Positions 5,507-24,858 are shown, numbered from the stretch's first letter. The stretch is 50,578 nt of DNA from Actinomycetota bacterium (GCA_009886115.1 VFJJ01000081.1:1-50578), one strand, 5' to 3'. Numbers and translations: made by a program. The notes: generated by a model from the letters alone, not told the origin.

Positions 5507-6694
5507 GGGGAGCCCGTACAGGGCGGCGGCGTTCGCGCCCATCATCCGGGCGATGGTCTCGCCGGGGACGCATTTGCCTTCCAGTAACGCCAAGGCCTCC
5601 TGGGGCGAGGAAGCGTCGTGGTGGGGAGAGCGGGAGCCCCAGTTGACCGCTGAGCTGTACACGTCGTGCAGCTCGGCGACCGACTCCTCCCAGGCGTCGA
5701 ACGTCACCATCGTGGAGCGCTCGAACCAGAGATGCTCGGGCTCGAGGCTGACGGGGATGGGGCCGGCCGGGAACAGCCACAGGTACGTCTCGGCCTTTTC
5801 GAGTGCCAGCTCGAGCCACGAGGCCCCAGCGTGGCACATCGACAGTCGTACGCCGGGGTACTCCTCGAGGTGTCCGTAGTACATGAGGCACAGGATGGCG
5901 AACATGTTGTCCTGCACGGGCGCCACCGACTCGGCGACGGGGTGCCCGATCGCCAGGTTGCCGGCCACCCGCTCGAGGAACGGGCCGTGCGACGTGAACT
6001 CGGGATTGGTGCTCCCCGGCGACGGATGCAGGCACGCCACGATCCCCATCTCTTCCAAGGCCGCCCACACCGGGTTGAAGTCGGAGTGGTTCAAGAAGCG
6101 TCCCTGGTGGAAGGCCGGTCGCAGGTTGACGGCCCGGAAGCCCTTGCTGGCCAAGCGATCCAGCTCCCGCAAGGTTGAGGGGATCGATTGAAGCGGCAGT
6201 ACGCCCACCGGATGCAGACGGTCTGGGGCAGCCGAGCAGAAGTCGCCGATCCAGTCGTTGTACGCCCGGGCCAGGATCGCTGCTGCCAGTGGACTCTCGA
6301 CGACGGGGAGATGCTCGTTGAACAGCGTCGGGAAGATGATCTGCTGGTCGATTCCGAGGACGTCGAGGTCGCGCAGGCGGGCCACCGGGTCGGACGCGCC
6401 GGCGACCGCCGTGTGCAGCGAGGCAGGGTCGAGCGATCCGATGTCGTCGACGGTCATGCCCGGCTCCCAGCAGGCGTGGCGGTTGATCCTCGACCGATTG
6501 AGGTTGACGGCTCTTCTGCCGTTGACGACGGTCACCTCGCTCCCACGGGGCCCGTCGTCGTGGAAGAACGCGTCCTGCGCGAGGAGTCGCTCGGATTCGG
6601 ACAGATACTCGGTCCAGATCGTGAGAGGTTCCCAGACGTGCGAGTCGGCGTCGATGATCGGAAACTCCGCCGCGGGGCGGTCGTGGTCGCTCAT
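5480..6694 (-). CDS. Amidohydrolase family protein (Amidohydro_2), atypical active site
   Basis: IIDADSHVWE, ARAYNDW, CLHP. C-terminal WGSRSPHHD instead of the usual GSD-x-PH. Confidence 0.88.
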   Translation of the reverse strand: MSDHDRPAAEFPIIDADSHVWEPLTIWTEYLSESERLLAQDAFFHDDGPRGSEVTVVNGRRAVNLNRSRINRHACWEPGMTVDDIGSLDPASLHTAVAGASDPVARLRDLDVLGIDQQIIFPTLFNEHLPVVESPLAAAILARAYNDWIGDFCSAAPDRLHPVGVLPLQSIPSTLRELDRLASKGFRAVNLRPAFHQGRFLNHSDFNPVWAALEEMGIVACLHPSPGSTNPEFTSHGPFLERVAGNLAIGHPVAESVAPVQDNMFAILCLMYYGHLEEYPGVRLSMCHAGASWLELALEKAETYLWLFPAGPIPVSLEPEHLWFERSTMVTFDAWEESVAELHDVYSSAVNWGSRSPHHDASSPQEALALLEGKCVPGETIARMMGANAAALYGLPALQHRPSA

Positions 6695-8348: not shown

Positions 8349-9593
8349 GTGAACTCATCGACGCTCCGTCAAGCAGCCGCCGGCCTCGCCCGGGCTCGCA
8401 CCATGGTCGATCTCCGGCAGGCCGAGGGGAACCGTTGGGAGCGGGGTCTGCGGCGGGCCCGCAACATCGCCGACGTCCGCGAGCTCGCCCGTCGGCGCCT
8501 GCCCCCGATGATCTTCGACTTCACCGACGGCGGCGCCGAGGACGAGGTCACGCTGGGGCGGAACTCGTCGGGATTCGGTCGGTGGCGCTTCCAGCCCCGG
8601 TCGCTCGTCGACGTGAGGACGGTCGACACTTCGACCACGGTCATGGGCCAGCCCATCTCGCTGCCCGTGGTGCTGTCCCCCTGCGGCTTGGCGCGCCTGA
8701 ACCATCCCGACGGCGAACGCGCCGCAGCACGCGCGGCAGGGAGGGCTGGAACGGTGTTCGCGCTCTCGACGGGGGCGAGCTGCTCGATCGAGGATGTCGC
8801 CGAAGCCGCAGCCGGTGGTCCGTTGTGGATGCAGCTGTATGTGTGGCGCGACCGGGGTGTCGTCAAGGAGTTGATCGCCCGGGCCCGCGACGCGGGGTAC
8901 GTGGGCTGTGTGCTCACGGTCGACGTTCCAACCGTCGGCAACCGTGAACGCGACGCCGCGCACGGGATGGCGCTGCCGCCGCGCATCACCCCGCGCAACG
9001 TGGTGAGCTCGGCGACCCGTCCAGGATGGTGGTGGCCTTTCATCACGAGCCCGGAGGTGACGTTCGAGATCGTGCGCGACAAGGCCGCCGGCAGTCGCGA
9101 CGCAGGAACGCTCGGCGCCTACGCCAGCAGCCAGATCGACCCTGGCGTCACGTGGGACGACCTGGCATGGATGGTCGATGCGTGGGACGGGAACTTCGCC
9201 ATCAAGGGCGTGATGCGCCCCGGCGACGCCGTGCGGGCGGTCGAGGCCGGCGTGCAGGCCGTGATCGTGTCGAACCATGGTGGCCGTCAGCTCGACCACG
9301 CGGTGTCGCCGATCGACGTGCTGGCCGATGTGGTCGCAGCGGTCGACGGCCGGGCCGAGGTGATCCTCGACGGCGGGGTGCGCCGAGGGACCGACGTCTG
9401 CAAGGCACTGGCCTTGGGAGCACAGGCGGTGATGGTCGGGCGTCCCTACATGTGGGGGTTGGGTGCTGGTGGCGAAGCGGGCGTCGATCGGGTGCTCGAG
9501 ATCCTTCGCGGCGAGATCACCCGCACGCTCACGTTGCTCGGCTGCCCGACCGTCGCCGACCTCGACCGTTCGTTCGTGGCCACGCTGCCCTGA
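8349..9593 (+). CDS. FMN-dependent alpha-hydroxy acid oxidase/dehydrogenase
   Basis: DGGAEDEVTL, WMQLY, LTVDVP, SNHGGRQLD, DGGVRRGTD. Start uncertain. Confidence 0.92.
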   Translation: MNSSTLRQAAAGLARARTMVDLRQAEGNRWERGLRRARNIADVRELARRRLPPMIFDFTDGGAEDEVTLGRNSSGFGRWRFQPRSLVDVRTVDTSTTVMGQPISLPVVLSPCGLARLNHPDGERAAARAAGRAGTVFALSTGASCSIEDVAEAAAGGPLWMQLYVWRDRGVVKELIARARDAGYVGCVLTVDVPTVGNRERDAAHGMALPPRITPRNVVSSATRPGWWWPFITSPEVTFEIVRDKAAGSRDAGTLGAYASSQIDPGVTWDDLAWMVDAWDGNFAIKGVMRPGDAVRAVEAGVQAVIVSNHGGRQLDHAVSPIDVLADVVAAVDGRAEVILDGGVRRGTDVCKALALGAQAVMVGRPYMWGLGAGGEAGVDRVLEILRGEITRTLTLLGCPTVADLDRSFVATLP

Positions 9594-13587: not shown

Positions 13588-13687
13588 AACAGCAAAGCGC
13601 CGACGATCGCCCATGGGCGGGTCGAAGGGGCCCGTCCCGCTGCCGAGTCGCATTCGTTCACTGCCTCACCTACACGAAGGGATCTCC

Positions 13688-14707
13688 ATGGGCCGCAACG
13701 TTCCCGGCGATTTCGCCACCCGCTGGACCCCGCCCGCCTACACCGTCGACGATGACGGCAAGGTCGTCGGCGGCTACACCCCGCCCGGATTGAACAACTG
13801 GGGACGCTGGGGCGCCAACGACCAGCGCGGCACCCAGAATCTCGTGGGCCCAGCGCAGATCGCGCGCGCCGCAGGGCTCGTTCGTGACGGCAAGGTGTTC
13901 TCGATGGCCCTCACGATCGACGCCGACGCCCCGCGCTTTCCCACCCGCCCCGCGCCGCAGCACTACTTCCTCTCGACCGGGGCCGACGCCGTCGCCGGAT
14001 CGCCCGTGCAGATCGCCATGCCGGGATACCAGTGGAACGACGACATGATCACCATGGCGCTCCAGGGCTCGACCCAGTGGGACGGCTTCGGGCACTTCAT
14101 GGCCCACGACACGATGTACAACGGTTACTGGGCTGGAAACGTCACCGCGGCGGGTGGGGCGGCCGTGCTCGGGATGGAGCACATGTACGAGAGCTTCATC
14201 GGGCGCGGTGTGCTGCTCGACCTGGCTCGGCTGCGCGGGGTCGAATGGCTCCCTGAGGCGTCCGAGGTGAACGCGGCGATGCTCGACGAGTGCCTGGCCG
14301 CCCAGGGCGTCGCCTTGGAGACGGGCGACATCGTCCTGCTGCGGACGGGCTTCCTCCAGAAGTGGGAGCGCTTGCAGACCTTCGACGAGCGGGTCGCCTA
14401 TTTCGGTGACACTCCCGGCCTCATCGAGGATTGCGTGGAATGGCTCTACCGAAACGACGTGTCGGCCCTGGCTGCTGACACGGTGGGCATCGAGGTCCTG
14501 GCCCCGACCACACCGCAGAGTCGGGTGCTGCCCATCCACCACGGCTGCCTCGTCGATCTCGGCCTTCCTCTCGGCGAGTTCTGGGACCTCGAGGCGCTCG
14601 CGGCCGACTGCGCCGACGACGGACGCTACGAGTTCATGCTGGTGGCGCCGCCGCTGCGCGTACCCCATGCGGTGGGCTCGCCCCTCAACCCCATTGCCAT
14701 GAAGTGA
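13688..14707 (+). CDS. Cyclase family (kynurenine formamidase-like) metal-dependent hydrolase
   Basis: NWGRWGANDQRG, QGSTQWDGFGH, GRGVLLD, GDIVLLRTG, GSPLNPIA. Confidence 0.92.
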   Translation: MGRNVPGDFATRWTPPAYTVDDDGKVVGGYTPPGLNNWGRWGANDQRGTQNLVGPAQIARAAGLVRDGKVFSMALTIDADAPRFPTRPAPQHYFLSTGADAVAGSPVQIAMPGYQWNDDMITMALQGSTQWDGFGHFMAHDTMYNGYWAGNVTAAGGAAVLGMEHMYESFIGRGVLLDLARLRGVEWLPEASEVNAAMLDECLAAQGVALETGDIVLLRTGFLQKWERLQTFDERVAYFGDTPGLIEDCVEWLYRNDVSALAADTVGIEVLAPTTPQSRVLPIHHGCLVDLGLPLGEFWDLEALAADCADDGRYEFMLVAPPLRVPHAVGSPLNPIAMK

Positions 14708-14720
14708 CGAGGGTCCCCAG

Positions 14721-16340
14721 GTGACGACACCGGCTCCGTGGACCTTGGGTCCTGACGAGCCGCGTGTGATCGGCGACTGGATCCGGCACAAGGCGCTGCG
14801 CAATCGAGAGAAGGTGGCGCTCGACATCGTTGGCCGCGAGAAGACCTATGTCGGTGTCGACCGCGACAGCGACCGGGTCGCCGCGGGCCTGTCCGCCCTC
14901 GGGCTGGGTCTGGGCGACAACGCGTCGCTGATGATGAAGAACAGCCTCGAGAACGTCGACGCCTGGTTCGCCATGGCCAAGGCCGGCATCGTGGAGGTTC
15001 CGATCAACCATGCCAATCGGGGATATCTCCTCGAGTACCTGATCGGACACTCGCACTCGAGGGCGATCGTGATCGACGAGGAGTACCTCGACCGCATCGC
15101 CGAGGTCGCTCCGAACCTCACCGGGCTCGAGCACGTCATCGTGCACCGCGAGGGTCTCGGCTTGGGAACCCCGTCGCTTCCCGGGCACGTCACCGTGCAC
15201 GAGCTGAACGACCTGTATCTCGACGTTCCGCCTCCTGCTCCGGCGCTCGACCGGCTGTCCCGGTCGGTCATTCTCTACACCTCGGGCACGACCGGGCCGT
15301 CGAAAGGGGTGTGCCTCTCACACGAGGCGAACCTCAACTTGACCCGTCACACGCGGTGGCTCGTGGGCTACGACGCCGACGACGTGCTCTACACGGCCTT
15401 CCCGCTGTTCCATGTGAACGCCAAGTACACCAGCGTGATGTGCGCCATGGAGGCCGACGCCAAGCTGGTGATGGACCAGAGGTTCTCGGCCAGCCACTTC
15501 TGGACGATGTGTCGCGACAAGGGCATCACCGCGTTCAACTACCAGGGCGGGCTGCTGATGATGCTCTGGAAGCAGCCCGAGCGCGACGACGACGCCGAGC
15601 ACTCGGTGCGGCACGGGTTCGGGGCTCCGTGCCCCGTCGAGATATGGGAGCCGTTCGAGGACCGGTTCGGCGTGGAACTGGTCGAGGTGTACGGGATGAC
15701 CGAGGTGGCCGTCGCCACCGAGAACCCCGTCCAATCTCGGCGCATCGGCTCCGCCGGACGCGAATCCGACAACTATCACGTCACGATCGTCGACGAGAAC
15801 GACCTGCCCGTTCCGCCGGGTACGGCCGGCGAGATCGTCGTGCGTCCGAAGAAGCCGGGCATCATGATCGGTGAATACTTCGACATGCCCGACGCCACCG
15901 TGCACGCCTTCAGGAACCTGTGGTTCCACACGGGTGATCGGGGGCGCTTCGACGACGACGGGTACCTGTACTTCATCGACCGGATGAAAGACTGCGTGCG
16001 ACGTCGGGGCGAGAACATCTCGTCGTTCGAGGTCGAGGCGGTCATCAACACGCACGATGCCGTGCTGGAGTCGGCCGTGTTCGGCGTCCCGTCGGAGCTC
16101 GGCGAGGAAGAGGTCATGACCGCGCTCGTTCGCAAGCCCGGGCATACGCTCGACGAGGTCGCCCTGCTCGACCATTGCACTGGGCACATGGCCCACTTCG
16201 CCGTGCCGAGGTACGTGAGGTGGATGGACGATTTGCCCAAGACCCCGTCGCAGCGGGTCGAGAAGTACAAGCTCCGGGCCGAGGGTGTCACCGTCGACAC
16301 CTGGGACCGCGATGCCAACGGGTACAAGGTGAAGCGATGA
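14721..16340 (+). CDS. AMP-dependent acyl-CoA ligase (CaiC-like)
   Basis: YTSGTTGPSKG, YGMTE, WFHTGD, RRRGENISSFEVE, PKTPSQRVEK. Confidence 0.95.
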   Translation: MTTPAPWTLGPDEPRVIGDWIRHKALRNREKVALDIVGREKTYVGVDRDSDRVAAGLSALGLGLGDNASLMMKNSLENVDAWFAMAKAGIVEVPINHANRGYLLEYLIGHSHSRAIVIDEEYLDRIAEVAPNLTGLEHVIVHREGLGLGTPSLPGHVTVHELNDLYLDVPPPAPALDRLSRSVILYTSGTTGPSKGVCLSHEANLNLTRHTRWLVGYDADDVLYTAFPLFHVNAKYTSVMCAMEADAKLVMDQRFSASHFWTMCRDKGITAFNYQGGLLMMLWKQPERDDDAEHSVRHGFGAPCPVEIWEPFEDRFGVELVEVYGMTEVAVATENPVQSRRIGSAGRESDNYHVTIVDENDLPVPPGTAGEIVVRPKKPGIMIGEYFDMPDATVHAFRNLWFHTGDRGRFDDDGYLYFIDRMKDCVRRRGENISSFEVEAVINTHDAVLESAVFGVPSELGEEEVMTALVRKPGHTLDEVALLDHCTGHMAHFAVPRYVRWMDDLPKTPSQRVEKYKLRAEGVTVDTWDRDANGYKVKR

Positions 16341-17563
16341 CCGGCATCGCCGAGCACGAGCGCAGGTCGGGAGCCAGGTCAGCGGCCGCACCAGCTGATG
16401 TGATCGTCCTCGAGGAGTCCGACCTGCAGGAGCGGTTCCACGCCGAGGGCTGGAGCGACGGCTTGCCCGTCGTGGCCCCGACGCCCGACCGGGTCGACGC
16501 CATGTTGGCCGCGGCTCGTCTCGACCCCGATCTGGTGGTGGGGATCGTTCCCCAGCGCGACCGGGTCGTCACCGCGGAGAAGGTCGCCGTCAACGCGGTC
16601 ATGGCCGGATGCCGGCCGGAGTACTTCCCATTGGTCGTCACGGCGATGGGGGCCATCCTCCAGCCCGCGTTCAACGCCCACACGGTGATCACGTCCACGG
16701 GTGGGGCAGCCCTGTGCCTCGTCGTCAGCGGTACCGAGGCCGACCGGCTCGGGATGAACGCCGCGCACAACGTGCTGGGCTCCGGCAACCGGGCCAATGC
16801 CACCATCGGTCGAGCCGTCAGGCTCGTCGCCCGGAACGTCCTCGGGGCGAGCTCCCCCGGGCTCGATGGATCGAGCTTCGGCCATCCCGGCAAGTACTCG
16901 TTGTGCATCGCCGAGGCGCCACCGCCGGCGGGTTGGGAGCCGCTTAGGGTCGAGCTCGGCTTCAGTGCCGACGACAGCACGGTCACGGTCGCGCCCACCG
17001 AAGGGCCGTGGCAGATTGCCAACCACCTGTCGCCTGCGGCACGCGACATCCTCCTCACCTTCGCCGCCGCGATCAGGTGCCCGGTCACGTTCTCGGTGGG
17101 CAAGGGCGGCCACGAGGTCGTGGTGCTGTTCGGGCCCGAGCATGCGCAGGCTGTTGCCGCCGAAGGCTGGACCCGTTCGGATGTGTGCGAGTTCCTCGTC
17201 GCGCACACGCGGGTCACGCCCGAGGAGTTGGCTGCGGCCGGCGTGCACCTGGAGGTGGGAGCCCAGCACGACATGACCCCAGACGCCGATGGGCGACTGG
17301 CGACCCTGGCGTCGCCGGCTTCGGTGTACGTCGTCACCTGTGGCGGCGCCGGGGCGGGGTGGTCGGCCTACCTGCCAACATGGGCGCCCAGCATCCACGC
17401 CCGGGCCGTGACGCTGCGGATCCCGAGACCGCACGAGCGCTGGCCGTGCACCGATGTCCACGGCCGTACGATCGACTGGTTGGTGTTCGCGCCGCCCTCA
17501 GCTCCCCAACCCCCGCGCCGCCTGCAGCACGTGCATGACCCAACGCGCGCCGCTTTCGCGTGA
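16337..17563 (+). CDS. Conserved hypothetical protein, partner of UGSC-type selenoproteins
   Basis: WSDGLPVVAPT, EKVAVNAVMAGC, GNRANATIGRA, GHPGKY motifs; ATGA overlap with the ligase. Confidence 0.8.
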   Translation: MTGIAEHERRSGARSAAAPADVIVLEESDLQERFHAEGWSDGLPVVAPTPDRVDAMLAAARLDPDLVVGIVPQRDRVVTAEKVAVNAVMAGCRPEYFPLVVTAMGAILQPAFNAHTVITSTGGAALCLVVSGTEADRLGMNAAHNVLGSGNRANATIGRAVRLVARNVLGASSPGLDGSSFGHPGKYSLCIAEAPPPAGWEPLRVELGFSADDSTVTVAPTEGPWQIANHLSPAARDILLTFAAAIRCPVTFSVGKGGHEVVVLFGPEHAQAVAAEGWTRSDVCEFLVAHTRVTPEELAAAGVHLEVGAQHDMTPDADGRLATLASPASVYVVTCGGAGAGWSAYLPTWAPSIHARAVTLRIPRPHERWPCTDVHGRTIDWLVFAPPSAPQPPRRLQHVHDPTRAAFA

Positions 17564-17595
17564 GGCGCCAGCACCGACAGATCGAGGAGCAGACC

Positions 17596-18183
17596 ATGGC
17601 CCAGATCACCGTTCACCGTCCCGACGTGGCCGACGACCGTCCGCAGGCGTCGTCGCTCGCCCGCCGGGTCTCGCTGCCAGCCGGAGCGGTCCTCACGCTC
17701 ATCGAGAACGGCAAGCCCAATGCTCGGGCGCTCATGGTGAAGGTGGCTGAAGGGCTGCGGTCTCGGCTGGGAATCGCGCGTGTAGACATCCATTCCAAGC
17801 CCAGCGCCGCCTCGGCCATCGGCCCTGACGAGGCCAAGGCGATCGCCGCGCGCTCTCATCTCGTCATCACCGGCGTCGGCGATTGAGGCGCCTGCACAGC
17901 GTGCAGTTTGCACGACGCCGTGATGATCGAGTCCCTCGGCACGCCAGCGACGCTGGTGATCACCGAGCCCTTTGCCCCCTTGGCTGCGAGCTTCTCGCGT
18001 ACCCTGGGCCTGGCGGAGGCGTACCACGTCGCTGCCGTCGCCCACCCTGTCTCCACGAAGGACGACGCCGAGCTCGGCGCCCTCGCGGCGACGATCGTCG
18101 ATCTCGTGGCGGCCCAGCTGACCATCGATCCGACCGATCCGACCGACCCGACCAACGACTCGACACGGGGAGCAGAGCAGTGA
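17596..18183 (+). CDS. UGSC-family-like selenoprotein (Sec at TGA 17884-17886, residue 97 of 195)
   Basis: ORFs 17560-17886 and 17908-18183 are in one frame and join across a single TGA, giving ITGVGD-U-GACTACSLHDAV. GAGGAG RBS before ATG 17596; SECIS-like hairpin follows the TGA. Confidence 0.85.
17887..17919 (+). promoter_or_regulatory. Candidate bacterial SECIS element
   Basis: GGCG...CGCC lower stem and CGTGCA-GTT-TGCACG upper stem-loop; loop G lies 20 nt after the UGA. Confidence 0.6.
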
Positions 18184-18740
18184 CCGACGACCTCGAAGCA
18201 CGGATCCGCCGGCTGGAGGACCGCGCCGAGATCAGCCTCCTCGTGGCCGAGTACGGCGTCGCCGTCGACGACCGCGACATGGCGACGCTGGGCGATCTCT
18301 TCACCGACGACGCGGTGTTCAGGCACGCCGACGGGTTCGCCGAGATGCGCGGCCGCGACACCGTCATCGACTTCTACCAGAACCGCTTTCGGCTGTTCGG
18401 GCCGAGCTTTCACTATCCGCACAGCCATGCGATCTGGTTTCCCGAGACGACCGGAGCCGGCGATGCGACGACCGCCACAGGACGGGTCACCGCCCATGCG
18501 GAGCTGGGGACCGAGGGAAAGACCGTCATGGTGGCCTTGCGCTACCACGATCGCTATGTGTGCCAAGGACGCTGGCGTTTCGCAGAGCGGGTGTTGTCGT
18601 TCCTGTACTTCATGGATCTGGCCGAGCTGGCCGCTGGCGGGCTGACGGCCCCGATGCGCAAGATCTGGCCTGGTCCGACGATGGCCACCGACCTGCCCGA
18701 GACGCTGCCGACCTGGCGCTCGTACTACGGGCTGGCGTGA
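18180..18740 (+). CDS. NTF2/SnoaL-like protein
   Basis: LEARIRRLEDRAEISLLVAEYGVAVDDRD ... RYHDRY ... WRFAER; GTGA overlap with the upstream gene. Confidence 0.9.
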   Translation: MTDDLEARIRRLEDRAEISLLVAEYGVAVDDRDMATLGDLFTDDAVFRHADGFAEMRGRDTVIDFYQNRFRLFGPSFHYPHSHAIWFPETTGAGDATTATGRVTAHAELGTEGKTVMVALRYHDRYVCQGRWRFAERVLSFLYFMDLAELAAGGLTAPMRKIWPGPTMATDLPETLPTWRSYYGLA

Positions 18741-18766
18741 GCAACGCCACCGACGAGGAGATCACG

Positions 18767-19474
18767 ATGAGCACCACCATCACTGAGCGGGTCGACGAGC
18801 TGCCTCCGGCCGAGCAGGCGATCGTCACCGAGATCGCGACGGCCTGCCGCATCTTGGCGGCCCACGGCTGCAGCCCCGGGATCGGTGGCCACGTGAGCGT
18901 GCGCGCTCCGGGGCAGGACGCCTTCTTCATCAACTCGTTCCACCTCACGTTCGACGAGATCACCCCGGCCGACGTGATGAAGCTCGGGTTCGACGGCAGC
19001 GCGCGTCACGGTCGCCACCGGGTGAGCCCGGGATGGGAGTTCCACGCCGGGATCTACCAGCAGCGCCGCGACGTCGACGCCGTCGTGCACACGCACGCCT
19101 TCTGGGTGACCGCGTTGTCGTCGCTCAACCGCCCGCTCAAGATGCGGCACAACCTGTGCACGTTCTTCTTCGAGAAGATGGCGGTGAGCCCCGACGACAC
19201 CTTCGAGCAGATCGGCCCGGCGCTGGCCGACGCCAACTCGATCCTCATCCCGTTCCACGGCGCGGTCACCGTCGACCGCTCGCTGGGCAGGGCCGCCGCG
19301 CTCATGCTGAACCTCGAGGACATGGCCCGCCTCGACGTGACCCTCGAGGCGACCCAGGCCCCACCCATGCCTGACGAACGCTGCCCCGCGCTCCGGACTC
19401 TCGTCGACGAGGTGGCCGGTTATCTGGAGCTGACCTGGGAGCTCCACCGCCGCAAGGTGATGCTCCCGTGGTGA
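18767..19474 (+). CDS. Class II aldolase/adducin family protein
   Basis: GHVSVR, HAGIYQQRRDVDAVVHTH, HG motif; GAGGAG RBS. Confidence 0.9.
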   Translation: MSTTITERVDELPPAEQAIVTEIATACRILAAHGCSPGIGGHVSVRAPGQDAFFINSFHLTFDEITPADVMKLGFDGSARHGRHRVSPGWEFHAGIYQQRRDVDAVVHTHAFWVTALSSLNRPLKMRHNLCTFFFEKMAVSPDDTFEQIGPALADANSILIPFHGAVTVDRSLGRAAALMLNLEDMARLDVTLEATQAPPMPDERCPALRTLVDEVAGYLELTWELHRRKVMLPW

Positions 19475-20727
19475 CCCGCGCCGGAGTGGGCCCGGGGCGC
19501 GAGGCCGAGCTGGCCGAGGCTCTCGTGGGTCTGGTCGACGGCGATCGCGACCCCTATCCGGTGTACGCCCTGCTCCGCGACGAGGCCCCGGTGCTGTGGT
19601 GCGACGCGCTCTCGGCCTGGGTGCTGACCCGTTGGGACGACGTCACCCGGGCCTTCGAGGACGCCGAGCACTTCGGGCAGCTCATGGGCACGCCCGGGAC
19701 GTCGTCGATCCACGGGCGGGCGCTCCTGCAGATGACGGGCGACGAGCACCGCCGCAAGTCGGCCATCGTCTCGCGCCGAATTCGCAGTCCCCGCCTGCTC
19801 GAGTCGGCGCTGGCCGAGATGGTCGCTCGCCTGATCGAGCACTTCGGCGGGGCGCTGCCGTTCGCCCCCGAGGTGGCTGACGTGAAGGGCGGGCTGACCA
19901 CGCCCGTTCCGCTGTCGGTCATCGGTGAGCTGATGGACATGCAAGAGGCCGCCCGTTTCGCCCACTGGTACCACGCCATCGTGGCCGCGGGAGTGGCGAA
20001 CGTGCGGGGAGACCCGGACGTCCACGCCCGCGGGCTCGAGGCGCGCCAGGAGCTGTACGACTTCGTCACGCCGATCATCGAGCAGAAGCGGCTCCACCCG
20101 GGTGACGAGTTACTGTCCGATCTCTGCTCGATGGAGTACGAGGGCGAACAGCTTTCCGACGACGAGGTCCGGAGCTTCTGCAGCTTTCTCCTTTCGGCTG
20201 GTATCGAGACGACCGACCGGGCACTCACCAGCCTGTTCAAGCAGCTGGCCCTGGAGCCGGCGTCGTGGCAGCGGGTGCGCGACGATCGATCACTCGTCTC
20301 GTCGGCCTGCGCCGAGATCCTCAGGTTCCGCGCACCGGTGCAGGGAACAGTGCGCGTCGTCGCTCGCGATCTCGAGCTCCGGGGCCGGAAGCTCCGCGCG
20401 GGTGACAAGGTCATCGTGTTGGTCGGAGCGGCGAACCACGATCCCGAGGCGTTCGCCGAGCCCGACTGCTTCGATGTCACCCGGTTCCTGGGCACCGAAC
20501 GGCCGCAGTTCACGCCGATCGGGCCTCTCCGCGCGTTCGGCGCTGGCGCCCACACCTGTACGGGGAGTCTCTTGGCCAAGCTGGAGATGGAGCGAACGCT
20601 CACGTACCTGCTCGACCGCTGCGAGCGCATCGAGCTCGTCGGCCCGGCACCAGCCGACGCCGGGTTCATGCTGCGATCGGCTCCGAGCCTCGAGCTGCGG
20701 CTCCACCCGAGCGCGGCGGTCCGCTGA
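19468..20727 (+). CDS. Cytochrome P450
   Basis: AGIETT I-helix, EILR, FGAGAHTCTG heme motif. Confidence 0.95.
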   Translation: MVTRAGVGPGREAELAEALVGLVDGDRDPYPVYALLRDEAPVLWCDALSAWVLTRWDDVTRAFEDAEHFGQLMGTPGTSSIHGRALLQMTGDEHRRKSAIVSRRIRSPRLLESALAEMVARLIEHFGGALPFAPEVADVKGGLTTPVPLSVIGELMDMQEAARFAHWYHAIVAAGVANVRGDPDVHARGLEARQELYDFVTPIIEQKRLHPGDELLSDLCSMEYEGEQLSDDEVRSFCSFLLSAGIETTDRALTSLFKQLALEPASWQRVRDDRSLVSSACAEILRFRAPVQGTVRVVARDLELRGRKLRAGDKVIVLVGAANHDPEAFAEPDCFDVTRFLGTERPQFTPIGPLRAFGAGAHTCTGSLLAKLEMERTLTYLLDRCERIELVGPAPADAGFMLRSAPSLELRLHPSAAVR

Positions 20728-20776
20728 AGACAGCGTTTCGACCTTCGACGAACGACATCACACCAGGAGGGGAGTC

Positions 20777-21613
20777 ATGAGCGGACGCTTGGCAGGAAAG
20801 GTCGCGGCGATCACAGGCGCGGCGAGCGGGTTCGGAGAGGGGGCCGTCAGGCGCTTCGTGGCCGAGGGAGCGAAGGTGGCCATGGGTGACCTGCAAGACG
20901 ACAGGGCCAAGGTGCTCTTCGACGACCTGGGCTCGGCCGTCGCCTACCTCCACTGCGATGTGACCAAGGAGGCCGACGTCGCGGCCCTCGTCGATCTGGC
21001 CGTGAGCCAGTTCGGCCGCCTCGATGTGATGTACAACAACGCCGGGATCGTCGGGGCAGTCGGGCCCATCGACACGACCCCCGCCGCCGAGTGGAGCGCC
21101 ACGCTGGCGGTCCTGCTCGATGGCGTGTTCCACGGCATGAAGCACGCAGCCCGGGTCATGAAGCCTCAGCAGTCCGGGTCGATCATCTCGATGGCGAGCA
21201 CGGCCGGCCTGTTCGGCGGGCTCGGGCCCCACGCCTACGCGTCGGCCAAGCATGCCGTGGTGGGCCTCACGAAGAACGTGGGGGCCGAGCTGTGCAGGTT
21301 CGGCATCCGGGTGAACTGCATCGCCCCGGCCAGCATGGCGACGGCCATGGTGGCCAACGTGATGACGGGCGACCCGACTGCGATCGAAGAGACCAAGCGG
21401 CTCCTGGCCGAGGCGTCGCCCATCCGCAACCGTCCCGGTCTGGTCGAGGACGTCGTGAACGCCGCCCTTTGGCTGGCGAGCGACGAGTCGGGTTACACGA
21501 ACGGGCATTGCCTCACGACCGATGCCGGTATCACCACCGGTTCGACGGCGGCCGACCCGGCCTTCGCCGAGTACGCCCCCATGATTCGCGAGGCCGGCAA
21601 GGTGGGTCTGTAG
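20777..21613 (+). CDS. SDR family oxidoreductase
   Basis: TGAASGFG, NNAG, YASAK; GGAGGGGAG RBS. Confidence 0.93.
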   Translation: MSGRLAGKVAAITGAASGFGEGAVRRFVAEGAKVAMGDLQDDRAKVLFDDLGSAVAYLHCDVTKEADVAALVDLAVSQFGRLDVMYNNAGIVGAVGPIDTTPAAEWSATLAVLLDGVFHGMKHAARVMKPQQSGSIISMASTAGLFGGLGPHAYASAKHAVVGLTKNVGAELCRFGIRVNCIAPASMATAMVANVMTGDPTAIEETKRLLAEASPIRNRPGLVEDVVNAALWLASDESGYTNGHCLTTDAGITTGSTAADPAFAEYAPMIREAGKVGL

Positions 21614-23709: not shown

Positions 23710-24858
23710 ATGGCCGAGGCCTACATCGTCGACGCCGTTCGCTCTCCGATGGGGAAGTACAAGGGCGGCCTCTCGAGCCTGCATCCGGCCGACCTCGGCG
23801 CCACGGTGTTGCGAGCGATGTTCGGCCGGATCGACGTCGACCCGGGGGCCGTCGACGATGTGATCTGGGGCTGTGTCGGCCAGATCGGCGCCCAAGCGTT
23901 CAATGTCGGCCGCAACACGTGGCTCTCGGCCGGGTTCCCCGACACGGTGCCGGCCGTCACCATCGACCGGCAGTGCGGATCGTCGCAGCAGGCCGTGCAC
24001 TTCGCGGCCCAGGCGATCATGGCCGGCTCGATGGACCTCGTCGTCGCCGGCGGTGTCGAGGTGATGAGCCTGGTTGCTCTGAACAGCCAGGGCGACGTGG
24101 GACCACAGCTCGGGATGCGCTATCCGTTCGACGGCGACCTCTGGAACGAGCGCTTCGGCGACCAGGAGATCCACCAGTTCCGGGGCGGGAACCTCATCGC
24201 CGAGCGGTGGGGTGTCACGGCGCGCGAGATGAACGAGCTGGGCCTGCGCAGCCATGAGCTCGCGGCTCGCGCGTGGGACGAGGGCCGCTTCGATCGCGAG
24301 GTCGTCGCCATCGGTGAATGCCGTACCGACGAGGGGATCCGGCGCGACTCGACCATGGAGCGCCTCGAGAAGCTCAAGCCCTTCGTCGAGGGCGGCGTGC
24401 TCACCGCCGGCATGTCGAGCCAGCTCACCGACGGATCGTCTGCGTTGCTGATCGCTTCCGAGCAGGCGGTGCGTGACCACGGGCTCACACCCCGGGCCCG
24501 CATCCACACCATGTCGGTCGTCGGAAGTGACCCTGTTCTGATCCTCACGGGGCCCATCCCGGCCACCAAGAAGGTCCTCGCTCGAGCCGGCATGGGTGTC
24601 GACGACATCGATCTCTACGAGTGCAACGAGGCCTTCGCCTCGGTGGTGCTGGCTTGGGTCAAGGACTGCGGGGTACCCCTCGAGAAGGTGAACGTGAACG
24701 GCGGGGCAATGGCCCTGGGTCATCCGCTCGGGGCCAGCGGTGCACGCCTCATGACCACGCTGTTGCACGAGCTCGAACGCACGGGTGGTCGCTACGGCTT
24801 GCAGACCATGTGCGAGGGCGGCGGGCTCTCGAACGCCACGATCATCGAACGGGTCTGA
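23710..24858 (+). CDS. Acetyl-CoA C-acyltransferase (thiolase, FadA6-like)
   Basis: MAEAYIVDAVRSP, DRQCGSSQQA, NEAF, GHPLGASG, MCEGGG. Confidence 0.95.
   Translation: MAEAYIVDAVRSPMGKYKGGLSSLHPADLGATVLRAMFGRIDVDPGAVDDVIWGCVGQIGAQAFNVGRNTWLSAGFPDTVPAVTIDRQCGSSQQAVHFAAQAIMAGSMDLVVAGGVEVMSLVALNSQGDVGPQLGMRYPFDGDLWNERFGDQEIHQFRGGNLIAERWGVTAREMNELGLRSHELAARAWDEGRFDREVVAIGECRTDEGIRRDSTMERLEKLKPFVEGGVLTAGMSSQLTDGSSALLIASEQAVRDHGLTPRARIHTMSVVGSDPVLILTGPIPATKKVLARAGMGVDDIDLYECNEAFASVVLAWVKDCGVPLEKVNVNGGAMALGHPLGASGARLMTTLLHELERTGGRYGLQTMCEGGGLSNATIIERV

Follow-up and report, generated by a model that had tools for sequence, protein, structure and literature searches.

Two short open reading frames on the plus strand of an Actinomycetota contig share one frame and are separated by a single TGA, which raises the question of whether this codon ends a gene or is read as selenocysteine (Sec) within one and, in the latter case, what the resulting protein would do. 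The window, i.e., the whole stretch of DNA analyzed, comprises 50,578 nucleotides with a GC content of 67%. A standard ORF listing divides the gene into 17560–17886 and 17908–18183, and the TGA between the two, at 17884–17886, lies as described in an earlier, sequence-only reading of this DNA. Translation through this codon yields one coding sequence (17596–18183, plus strand; stop TGA at 18181–18183), whose product has the 195 residues proposed there, with Sec as residue 97 (...LVITGVGD-U-GACTACSLHDAVMIE..., TGA = U) in the context GVGD-U-GACTACSLHD.

Homologs all open with M-x-x-I-T-V-x-R-P-D at the ATG at 17596, and a Shine-Dalgarno-like GAGGAG (17584–17589, plus strand) precedes this codon with a 6-nt spacer, in agreement with the ribosome-binding site reported earlier. 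At the other end, the stop codon overlaps the GTG at 18180 of a downstream SnoaL_4-domain gene (18180–18740, plus strand), the GTGA coupling that had also been pointed out. GC content at third codon positions in the UGSC frame is 0.81 before the TGA and 0.86 after it, compared with 0.52–0.74 for the two alternative frames, which suggests that one and the same frame is translated on either side of the TGA. Two other in-frame TGA candidates in the window, at 24856 and 46080, proved to be ordinary gene boundaries, with a complete gene on each side in a common frame.

The read-through protein is a further member of the long-known UGSC family and not a new kind of selenoprotein. It matched PF24696 (UGSC) over profile positions 2–171 of 172 (E 2.5e-39), scoring 135.6 bits against a Pfam cut-off of 25, and this was its sole Pfam match at E up to 1; the same scan returned neither PF07355 (GRDB) at E up to 1 nor a thioredoxin-type family. 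With Cys substituted for Sec, the protein scored 109.6 bits against NF041046, "UGSC family (seleno)protein", below the curated equivalog cut-off of 125. Twelve close Cys homologs straddle the same cut-off, four reaching it (125.6–128.7 bits) and eight falling at 111.7–122.5 bits. The gene belongs to a stand-alone "U-G-A-C-x-x-C" clade at the edge of the NCBIfam model. The U/C-x-x-C motif is present as GD-U-GAC, at the conserved position after a β-strand. The sequence-only reading had presented the protein as a U-x-x-C-x-x-C selenoprotein and a "UGAC variant" of UGSC. Its assignment to the family holds, and the three-residue pattern is present here, but the third Cys is specific to the clade and not family-wide, and UGAC is the rule within the stand-alone clade, where nine of the 12 Cys forms read CGAC.

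According to the available text of the 2008 report, the UGSC family was described from Sargasso Sea and GOS metagenomes, was assigned a "likely" Trx-like fold, and occurs fused to a domain named Unknown_1 (PMC2398784). A 2016 survey, in the portion accessible to us, gives its presence in 26 of more than 5200 genomes (PMC5029168), and the accessible sections of reviews from 2022 and 2026 list the family without an assigned function (PMC9312934; PMC13188914). Our literature search, with most subscription journals outside its coverage, returned no function for UGSC or Unknown_1.

A scan of genome contigs provided 10 related loci, at 46–83% identity. Seven come from Acidimicrobiales-like (four) or Solirubrobacteraceae (three) MAGs, one each from an Actinomycetes MAG (83% identity) and an Ilumatobacteraceae MAG, and one (L007) from the culture-collection strain Solirubrobacter soli DSM 22325. 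TGA occupies the homologous codon in all 10, nine of them in an intact frame with the motif GD-U-GAC[TS][AS]CSLHDA. In the remaining one (L010, a Solirubrobacteraceae MAG, 6001–6523), UGSC and the upstream gene discussed below are partly out of frame, yet GAC-TGA-GGCGCC... and the hairpin are kept in the DNA; the disturbance could reflect assembly indels or a decaying copy. In the protein database, by comparison, all 12 full-length homologs carry Cys in the Sec column. Cys or TGA at residue 97 is the signature for which a homolog search had been suggested and, together with the full-length PF24696 match, it upholds the idea of a selenoprotein hidden from annotation. A thirteenth homolog (P0014, 112 aa) terminates at ...GVGD; judging from its sequence, it is the N-terminal half of another Sec form, in line with the prediction that gene callers would split such genes.

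Conservation continues past the TGA, with the C-terminal half showing 53–87% identity across the loci. An alignment of 22 sequences shows no variation at C/U97, C100 and S104 and hardly any at G98, A99 and C103; the stretch G98–S104, including its two Cys residues, lies past the TGA and ahead of the first codon at which translation could restart. The TGA/Cys pattern, together with these conserved residues ahead of any restart, excludes a recent nonsense mutation and is strong evidence against a pair of independent genes. Two genes encoding an N-terminal protein of 96–108 aa and a C-terminal protein of 91 aa that assemble after translation would account for the separate frames in ORF lists (17560–17886 and 17908–18183) and for the halves found in public protein sets (P0014 and the partial fused forms below), but this arrangement is scarcely credible given that G98–S104 is invariant or nearly so before the first restart codon, that the restart TTG at 17908 is CTG in three of 10 relatives, that any ribosome-binding site would be indistinguishable from conserved coding sequence, and that the Cys-type homologs are single chains.

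Downstream of the TGA, the hairpin CGTGCA-GTT-TGCACG named in the sequence-only reading is present at 17900–17914 (plus strand) as a candidate upper stem-loop of a bacterial SECIS, with a 6-bp stem (CGUGCA/UGCACG) and the loop GUU. Counting the U of UGA as 1, nucleotides 17–22 pair with 26–31, placing G23 and U24 in a loop that begins 19 nt past the UGA. The bSECIS model, as set out in the sections available of a 2026 review (PMC13188914), calls for a loop of 3–9 nt, an upper stem of 4–16 bp, a G in the first two loop positions, a spacing of 16–37 nt and an energy of at most −7.5 kcal/mol. The 17900–17914 hairpin agrees with this model in loop size, loop G, spacing and energy, the last being −7.6 kcal/mol when the upper hairpin is taken in context and −11.1 to −13.3 kcal/mol once a lower stem is included. 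A possible lower stem with internal loop (17887–17920, plus strand) can be drawn in two alternative pairings, neither of them fully conserved. The GGCG/CGCC outer stem proposed earlier exists (17887–17890/17915–17918), but conservation covers just part of it, and the lower stem favored by RNAalifold is a different one. No bulged U was identified. Rfam gave no match in the whole window at the gathering threshold and, for 17800–18000 at E up to 10, chance hits only, with no SECIS family.

In the folding analysis that had been recommended for this region, the hairpin follows the bSECIS model and its stem is kept in all relatives, but its stability does not exceed that of shuffled sequences (RNAfold z-score −0.03). 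In this GC-rich window, bSECIS-like hairpins follow 12–20% of 10,001 ordinary codon positions. Because such a hairpin is met by chance this often, only its conservation carries weight. All 10 Sec-form sequences preserve the stem, in which two changes turn G-C into G-U. These 10 sequences contain no compensatory change in the stem, because it also encodes the conserved residues C-S-L-H, and covariation is thus uninformative. The loop reads GU[U/C] throughout, and variation is confined to its third base (U/C), to the internal loop or to a wobble-pair change. The Ser codon in the loop is AGT in all 10 sequences; across 42 ORFs of the window, AGT accounts for 23 of 742 Ser codons (3.1%). Invariant residues have a mean codon identity of approximately 0.77 at positions 98–108 (9 columns; 0.79 if the TGA is counted as a tenth column), versus 0.54 elsewhere (39 columns). 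The Ilumatobacteraceae MAG (L006) has a GC content of 47%, 20–28 points below the other loci, and yet the 31 bases after its TGA show no more than a single difference from the closest high-GC loci, which are of the Acidimicrobiales type (L002–L005); this near-identity despite low GC illustrates nucleotide-level constraint on these 31 bases.

Searches for the Sec machinery, including tRNA and Rfam scans, returned no selA, selB, selD or selC/tRNA-Sec among the 45 ORFs of the window, and none of selA, selB, selC and selD was present among 73 ORFs in the fetched flanks of the related loci. ARAGORN reported a tRNA-Ala (92 nt, 8854–8945, plus strand) and a tRNA-Arg (83 nt, 15592–15674, plus strand) in the window. 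Both calls are probably false positives and were rejected as tRNA genes because they lie inside ORFs with strong Pfam matches, an FMN-dependent dehydrogenase and an AMP-binding ligase, respectively, and have no Rfam tRNA support.

The TGA could instead be a true stop in a broken Cys-type UGSC gene, arising from a TGC to TGA nonsense mutation or a sequencing error. In favor of this reading, no Sec genes were seen in the window and locus flanks, Cys-type homologs do exist, TGC and TGA are one base apart, and L010 provides a related locus with a disturbed frame. However, 10 of 10 independent loci from several orders share the TGA, which already makes such an origin very unlikely, and the coding signature and residue conservation persist past the TGA, where the conserved hairpin and the rare codon are also found. 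We consider this explanation close to untenable.

Slightly better placed, yet still very improbable, is reading of the UGA independently of a Sec system, either by a near-cognate tRNA (Trp or Cys) or through a reassigned code. Against it, TGA serves as the ordinary stop of the UGSC gene and of its neighbors, the site is occupied by Cys and never by Trp in homologs, and the hairpin with its G-U loop is under the synonymous-site constraint that SelB recruitment would need. More indirectly, the portions available of a survey (PMC5029168) and a preprint (10.64898/2026.04.03.716425) record the Sec trait for Actinobacteria and for a lineage of Acidimicrobiia, respectively. Following the standard bacterial mechanism, the UGA at 17884 would be decoded as selenocysteine, with SelB, loaded with Sec-tRNA(Sec), recognizing the G-U loop that the hairpin at 17900–17914 displays 19 nt downstream. 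That 17596–18183 is a real, Sec-decoded gene is, in our assessment, highly probable.

The structure predicted for the UGSC protein (pLDDT 87.3, pTM 0.80) comprises five strand-helix units, with residue 97 located after a strand (89–95) and before a helix (98–113). Fold matches in the PDB were weak (TM 0.4–0.5) and comprised AzoR, flavodoxins and the flavodoxin domain of flavodiiron proteins; on the basis of this model, the protein is predicted to be a flavodoxin-like α/β domain. None of the listed PDB matches is a thioredoxin-fold chain. A PDB sequence search with the single protein returned nothing meaningful, and a profile built from the UGSC alignment gave a marginal match to the P-loop/Walker-A region of ArsA (5zme; E 1.1e-4, 55 residues). 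This match spans UGSC residues 82–137 (approximately 17839–18006 in the window) and sets G-V-G-D-U-G-A-C-T against G-K-G-G-V-G-K-T-S. The Sec loop may therefore be of P-loop-like ancestry, the ArsA match being a lead and not a demonstration of homology. The poorly conserved, low-confidence C-terminal tail contains a 9-nt unit repeated three times at 18127–18153 (plus strand; GATCCGACC, GATCCGACC, GACCCGACC), which encodes DPT-DPT-DPT; a DPT-like tail, differently spelled, occurs in L001 only.

Immediately upstream lies a gene (16337–17563, plus strand), hereafter the partner, whose ATG overlaps the stop of the preceding acyl-CoA ligase gene and whose 408-aa product matched no Pfam or NCBIfam family. 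The partner is found directly upstream of UGSC in all 10 loci, with 45–86% identity, and it is the sole constant neighbor of UGSC across them; in three loci from Solirubrobacteraceae, the stop of the partner abuts or overlaps the start of UGSC. Within the loci, mean column identity is 66% for the partner versus 53% for UGSC, and the partner motif NAVMAGC is invariant. Cys92, located in this motif, is nearly invariant. The motif block AVNAVMAGC-PEY-P...NG/SG recurs in the "Unknown_1" alignment shown as Fig. S1A of PMC2398784, which identifies the partner, at the level of sequence, as the "Unknown_1" domain known from fusions with UGSC in other organisms. Its AlphaFold model is confident (pLDDT 90.9, pTM 0.91), but the best fold match had a TM of approximately 0.25 (class I fumarate hydratase and Toblerone-fold hydrolases), so the partner lacks a usable solved structural relative. 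An atlas look-up gave only unnamed or automatically named clusters.

A profile of the partner family, searched against 1.84 billion representatives, recovered 6147 relatives with E values up to 1e-3, 1556 of them reaching 1e-30 or better. Among the best 150 hits, we scanned all 64 relatives of at least 404 aa against Pfam, and 40 of these 64 carry UGSC. The domain is complete and N-terminal in 12, whereas 23 start with only the part that follows Sec, four end with the part that precedes it (all in ...GD) and one has another arrangement. An AhpC/TSA domain stands at UGSC's place, N-terminal, in three of the 64; C-terminal FeThRed_B and Pyr_redox_2 domains occur in one each (P0093, which is also among the 23 post-Sec starters, and P0050, respectively), and 20 show no further Pfam family. 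These swaps and fusions are seen in P0121, P0125, P0148, P0093 and P0050. The partial UGSC forms are gene-caller products of Sec-containing fusions, and the 27 fused relatives that begin just after or end just before the Sec position show the same splitting as P0014. Seven of the 12 full fused UGSC domains contain C-G-[SN]-C, one retains the first Cys only and four have no Cys at all, so a redox Cys/Sec is not universal in the wider family. Six relatives of approximately 710 aa (P0021, P0026, P0028, P0031, P0036 and P0055), in which the partner profile matched two or three stretches and which have no Pfam family, look like tandem domain duplications.

The constant upstream position of the partner and its fusion to UGSC elsewhere point to a two-part redox enzyme. 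UGSC would most likely be the small redox subunit, as gene order and the natural fusions suggest, and the product of 16337–17563, of the Unknown_1 family, would be the large one. In the model, Sec97 is predicted to sit at the N-terminal end of a helix, directly past a β-strand, where, in view of the motif, it could form a redox-active selenenylsulfide pair with Cys100 and, in the UGAC clade, also with Cys103. The AhpC/TSA domain that takes UGSC's place before the partner domain in three relatives suggests an equivalent redox role. Fusions of the partner domain to thioredoxin-reductase-like or ferredoxin:thioredoxin-reductase-like modules suggest electron supply by a disulfide relay, in which electrons would arrive from thioredoxin-type reductases. 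On these comparative grounds, we lean toward the view that the UGSC protein and the upstream protein work together as a redox pair.

A UxxC motif at a helix N-terminus is typical of thioredoxin-type thiol-disulfide oxidoreductases, and its occurrence here fits the proposal, made in 2008, of a genuine selenoprotein of this type, which would be free-standing and untied to the upstream gene. However, the predicted fold, with its five parallel strand-helix units, is flavodoxin-like and returned no Trx-fold chain among the listed PDB matches, the upstream gene adjoins UGSC in all 10 loci, and many relatives of the partner are fused to UGSC. A free-standing enzyme is therefore unlikely, although it is the alternative that fares best. 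To the overall explanation, in which a UGSC selenoprotein with a SECIS hairpin acts as the small redox subunit serving the upstream partner, we assign a probability of roughly 0.85.

The UGSC gene is part of a packed row on the plus strand (13613–21613) consisting of cyclase, acyl-CoA ligase, partner, UGSC, SnoaL-like, class II aldolase, P450 and SDR genes, with stop/start overlaps at 16337/16340, 18180/18183 and 19468/19474. In L001, the order of this row is kept from the cyclase through the P450 gene, with 80–96% protein identity. The SnoaL_4 gene (18180–18740) lies beside UGSC only in this closest relative and is not conserved in the other loci. Overall, UGSC neighborhoods are catabolic and variable, with acyl-CoA ligases, CoA-transferases, SnoaL-like, luciferase-like and glyoxalase-like proteins, P450s and SDRs. 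The window contains three P450s, three AMP-dependent ligases, two thiolases, several SDRs and three CoA-transferase subunits, as well as three luciferase-like monooxygenases, an acyl-CoA dehydrogenase, an enoyl-CoA hydratase and a MaoC dehydratase; dominated by such catabolic genes, it looks like a lipid- or steroid-type degradation region.

As a tentative proposal, which we rate well short of an even chance, UGSC and Unknown_1 may constitute an undescribed two-component selenoenzyme that receives electrons via thioredoxin-reductase-like or ferredoxin:thioredoxin-reductase-like modules and, in these Actinomycetota, performs a reductive step in acyl-CoA-type catabolic clusters. In it, the small, flavodoxin-like Sec/Cys subunit would serve the large one, with its single nearly invariant Cys. 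Any particular substrate that might be named for UGSC and its partner would be more doubtful still. If such a two-component selenoenzyme exists, one of the most abundant environmental selenoprotein families would at last have a function, and the two-gene module offers a route toward it. Handles for experiments come from the strict association of UGSC with a large and widespread partner family that lacks a Pfam entry, and from the swaps and fusions with known redox modules. The locus also marks an annotation gap: the gene is split by ordinary callers and scores just under the NCBIfam cut-off, so the stand-alone, high-GC UGSC clade is likely under-annotated.

Among known systems, the SECIS of E. 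coli fdhF offers a reference for the hairpin, with G23 and U24 in its loop. The window candidate resembles it and the bSECIS consensus, as given in the available sections of PMC13188914, in its 6-bp upper stem and in a 3-nt loop that starts with G-U at positions 23 and 24. It differs in having no identified bulged U and an ambiguous lower stem. For the protein, one point of comparison is selenoprotein B of the GrdB/PrdB type (PF07355), found in glycine, sarcosine, betaine and D-proline reductases, which has UxxCxxC spacing; in these reductases, the Sec subunit cooperates with a partner protein larger than itself, and electrons come from a thioredoxin-type system. The window protein has the same U-x-x-C-x-x-C spacing but no PF07355 match, so homology is not implied, and no pyruvoyl-subunit genes lie nearby in the window. 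Trx-fold selenoproteins with UxxC or CxxU motifs (Trx-like, Prx-like and DsbA-like) share with the window protein a Sec-containing UxxC motif at a helix start, but the window protein is predicted from its model to be flavodoxin-like and has no thioredoxin-type Pfam match. The closest comparison is the UGSC family itself (PF24696/NF041046; PMC2398784), with which the protein shares the U/C-x-x-C column and the pairing of Sec and Cys among homologs. The fused forms seen read U-G-S-C-x-x-W, whereas the window protein reads U-G-A-C-x-x-C and is encoded by a stand-alone gene that follows its partner gene in high-GC Actinomycetota. In the UGSC/Unknown_1 fusions, as depicted in the available material of the 2008 report (PMC2398784, Fig. 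S1A), a single chain runs from UGSC to Unknown_1; in the window, the two are separate genes in the order partner, then UGSC.
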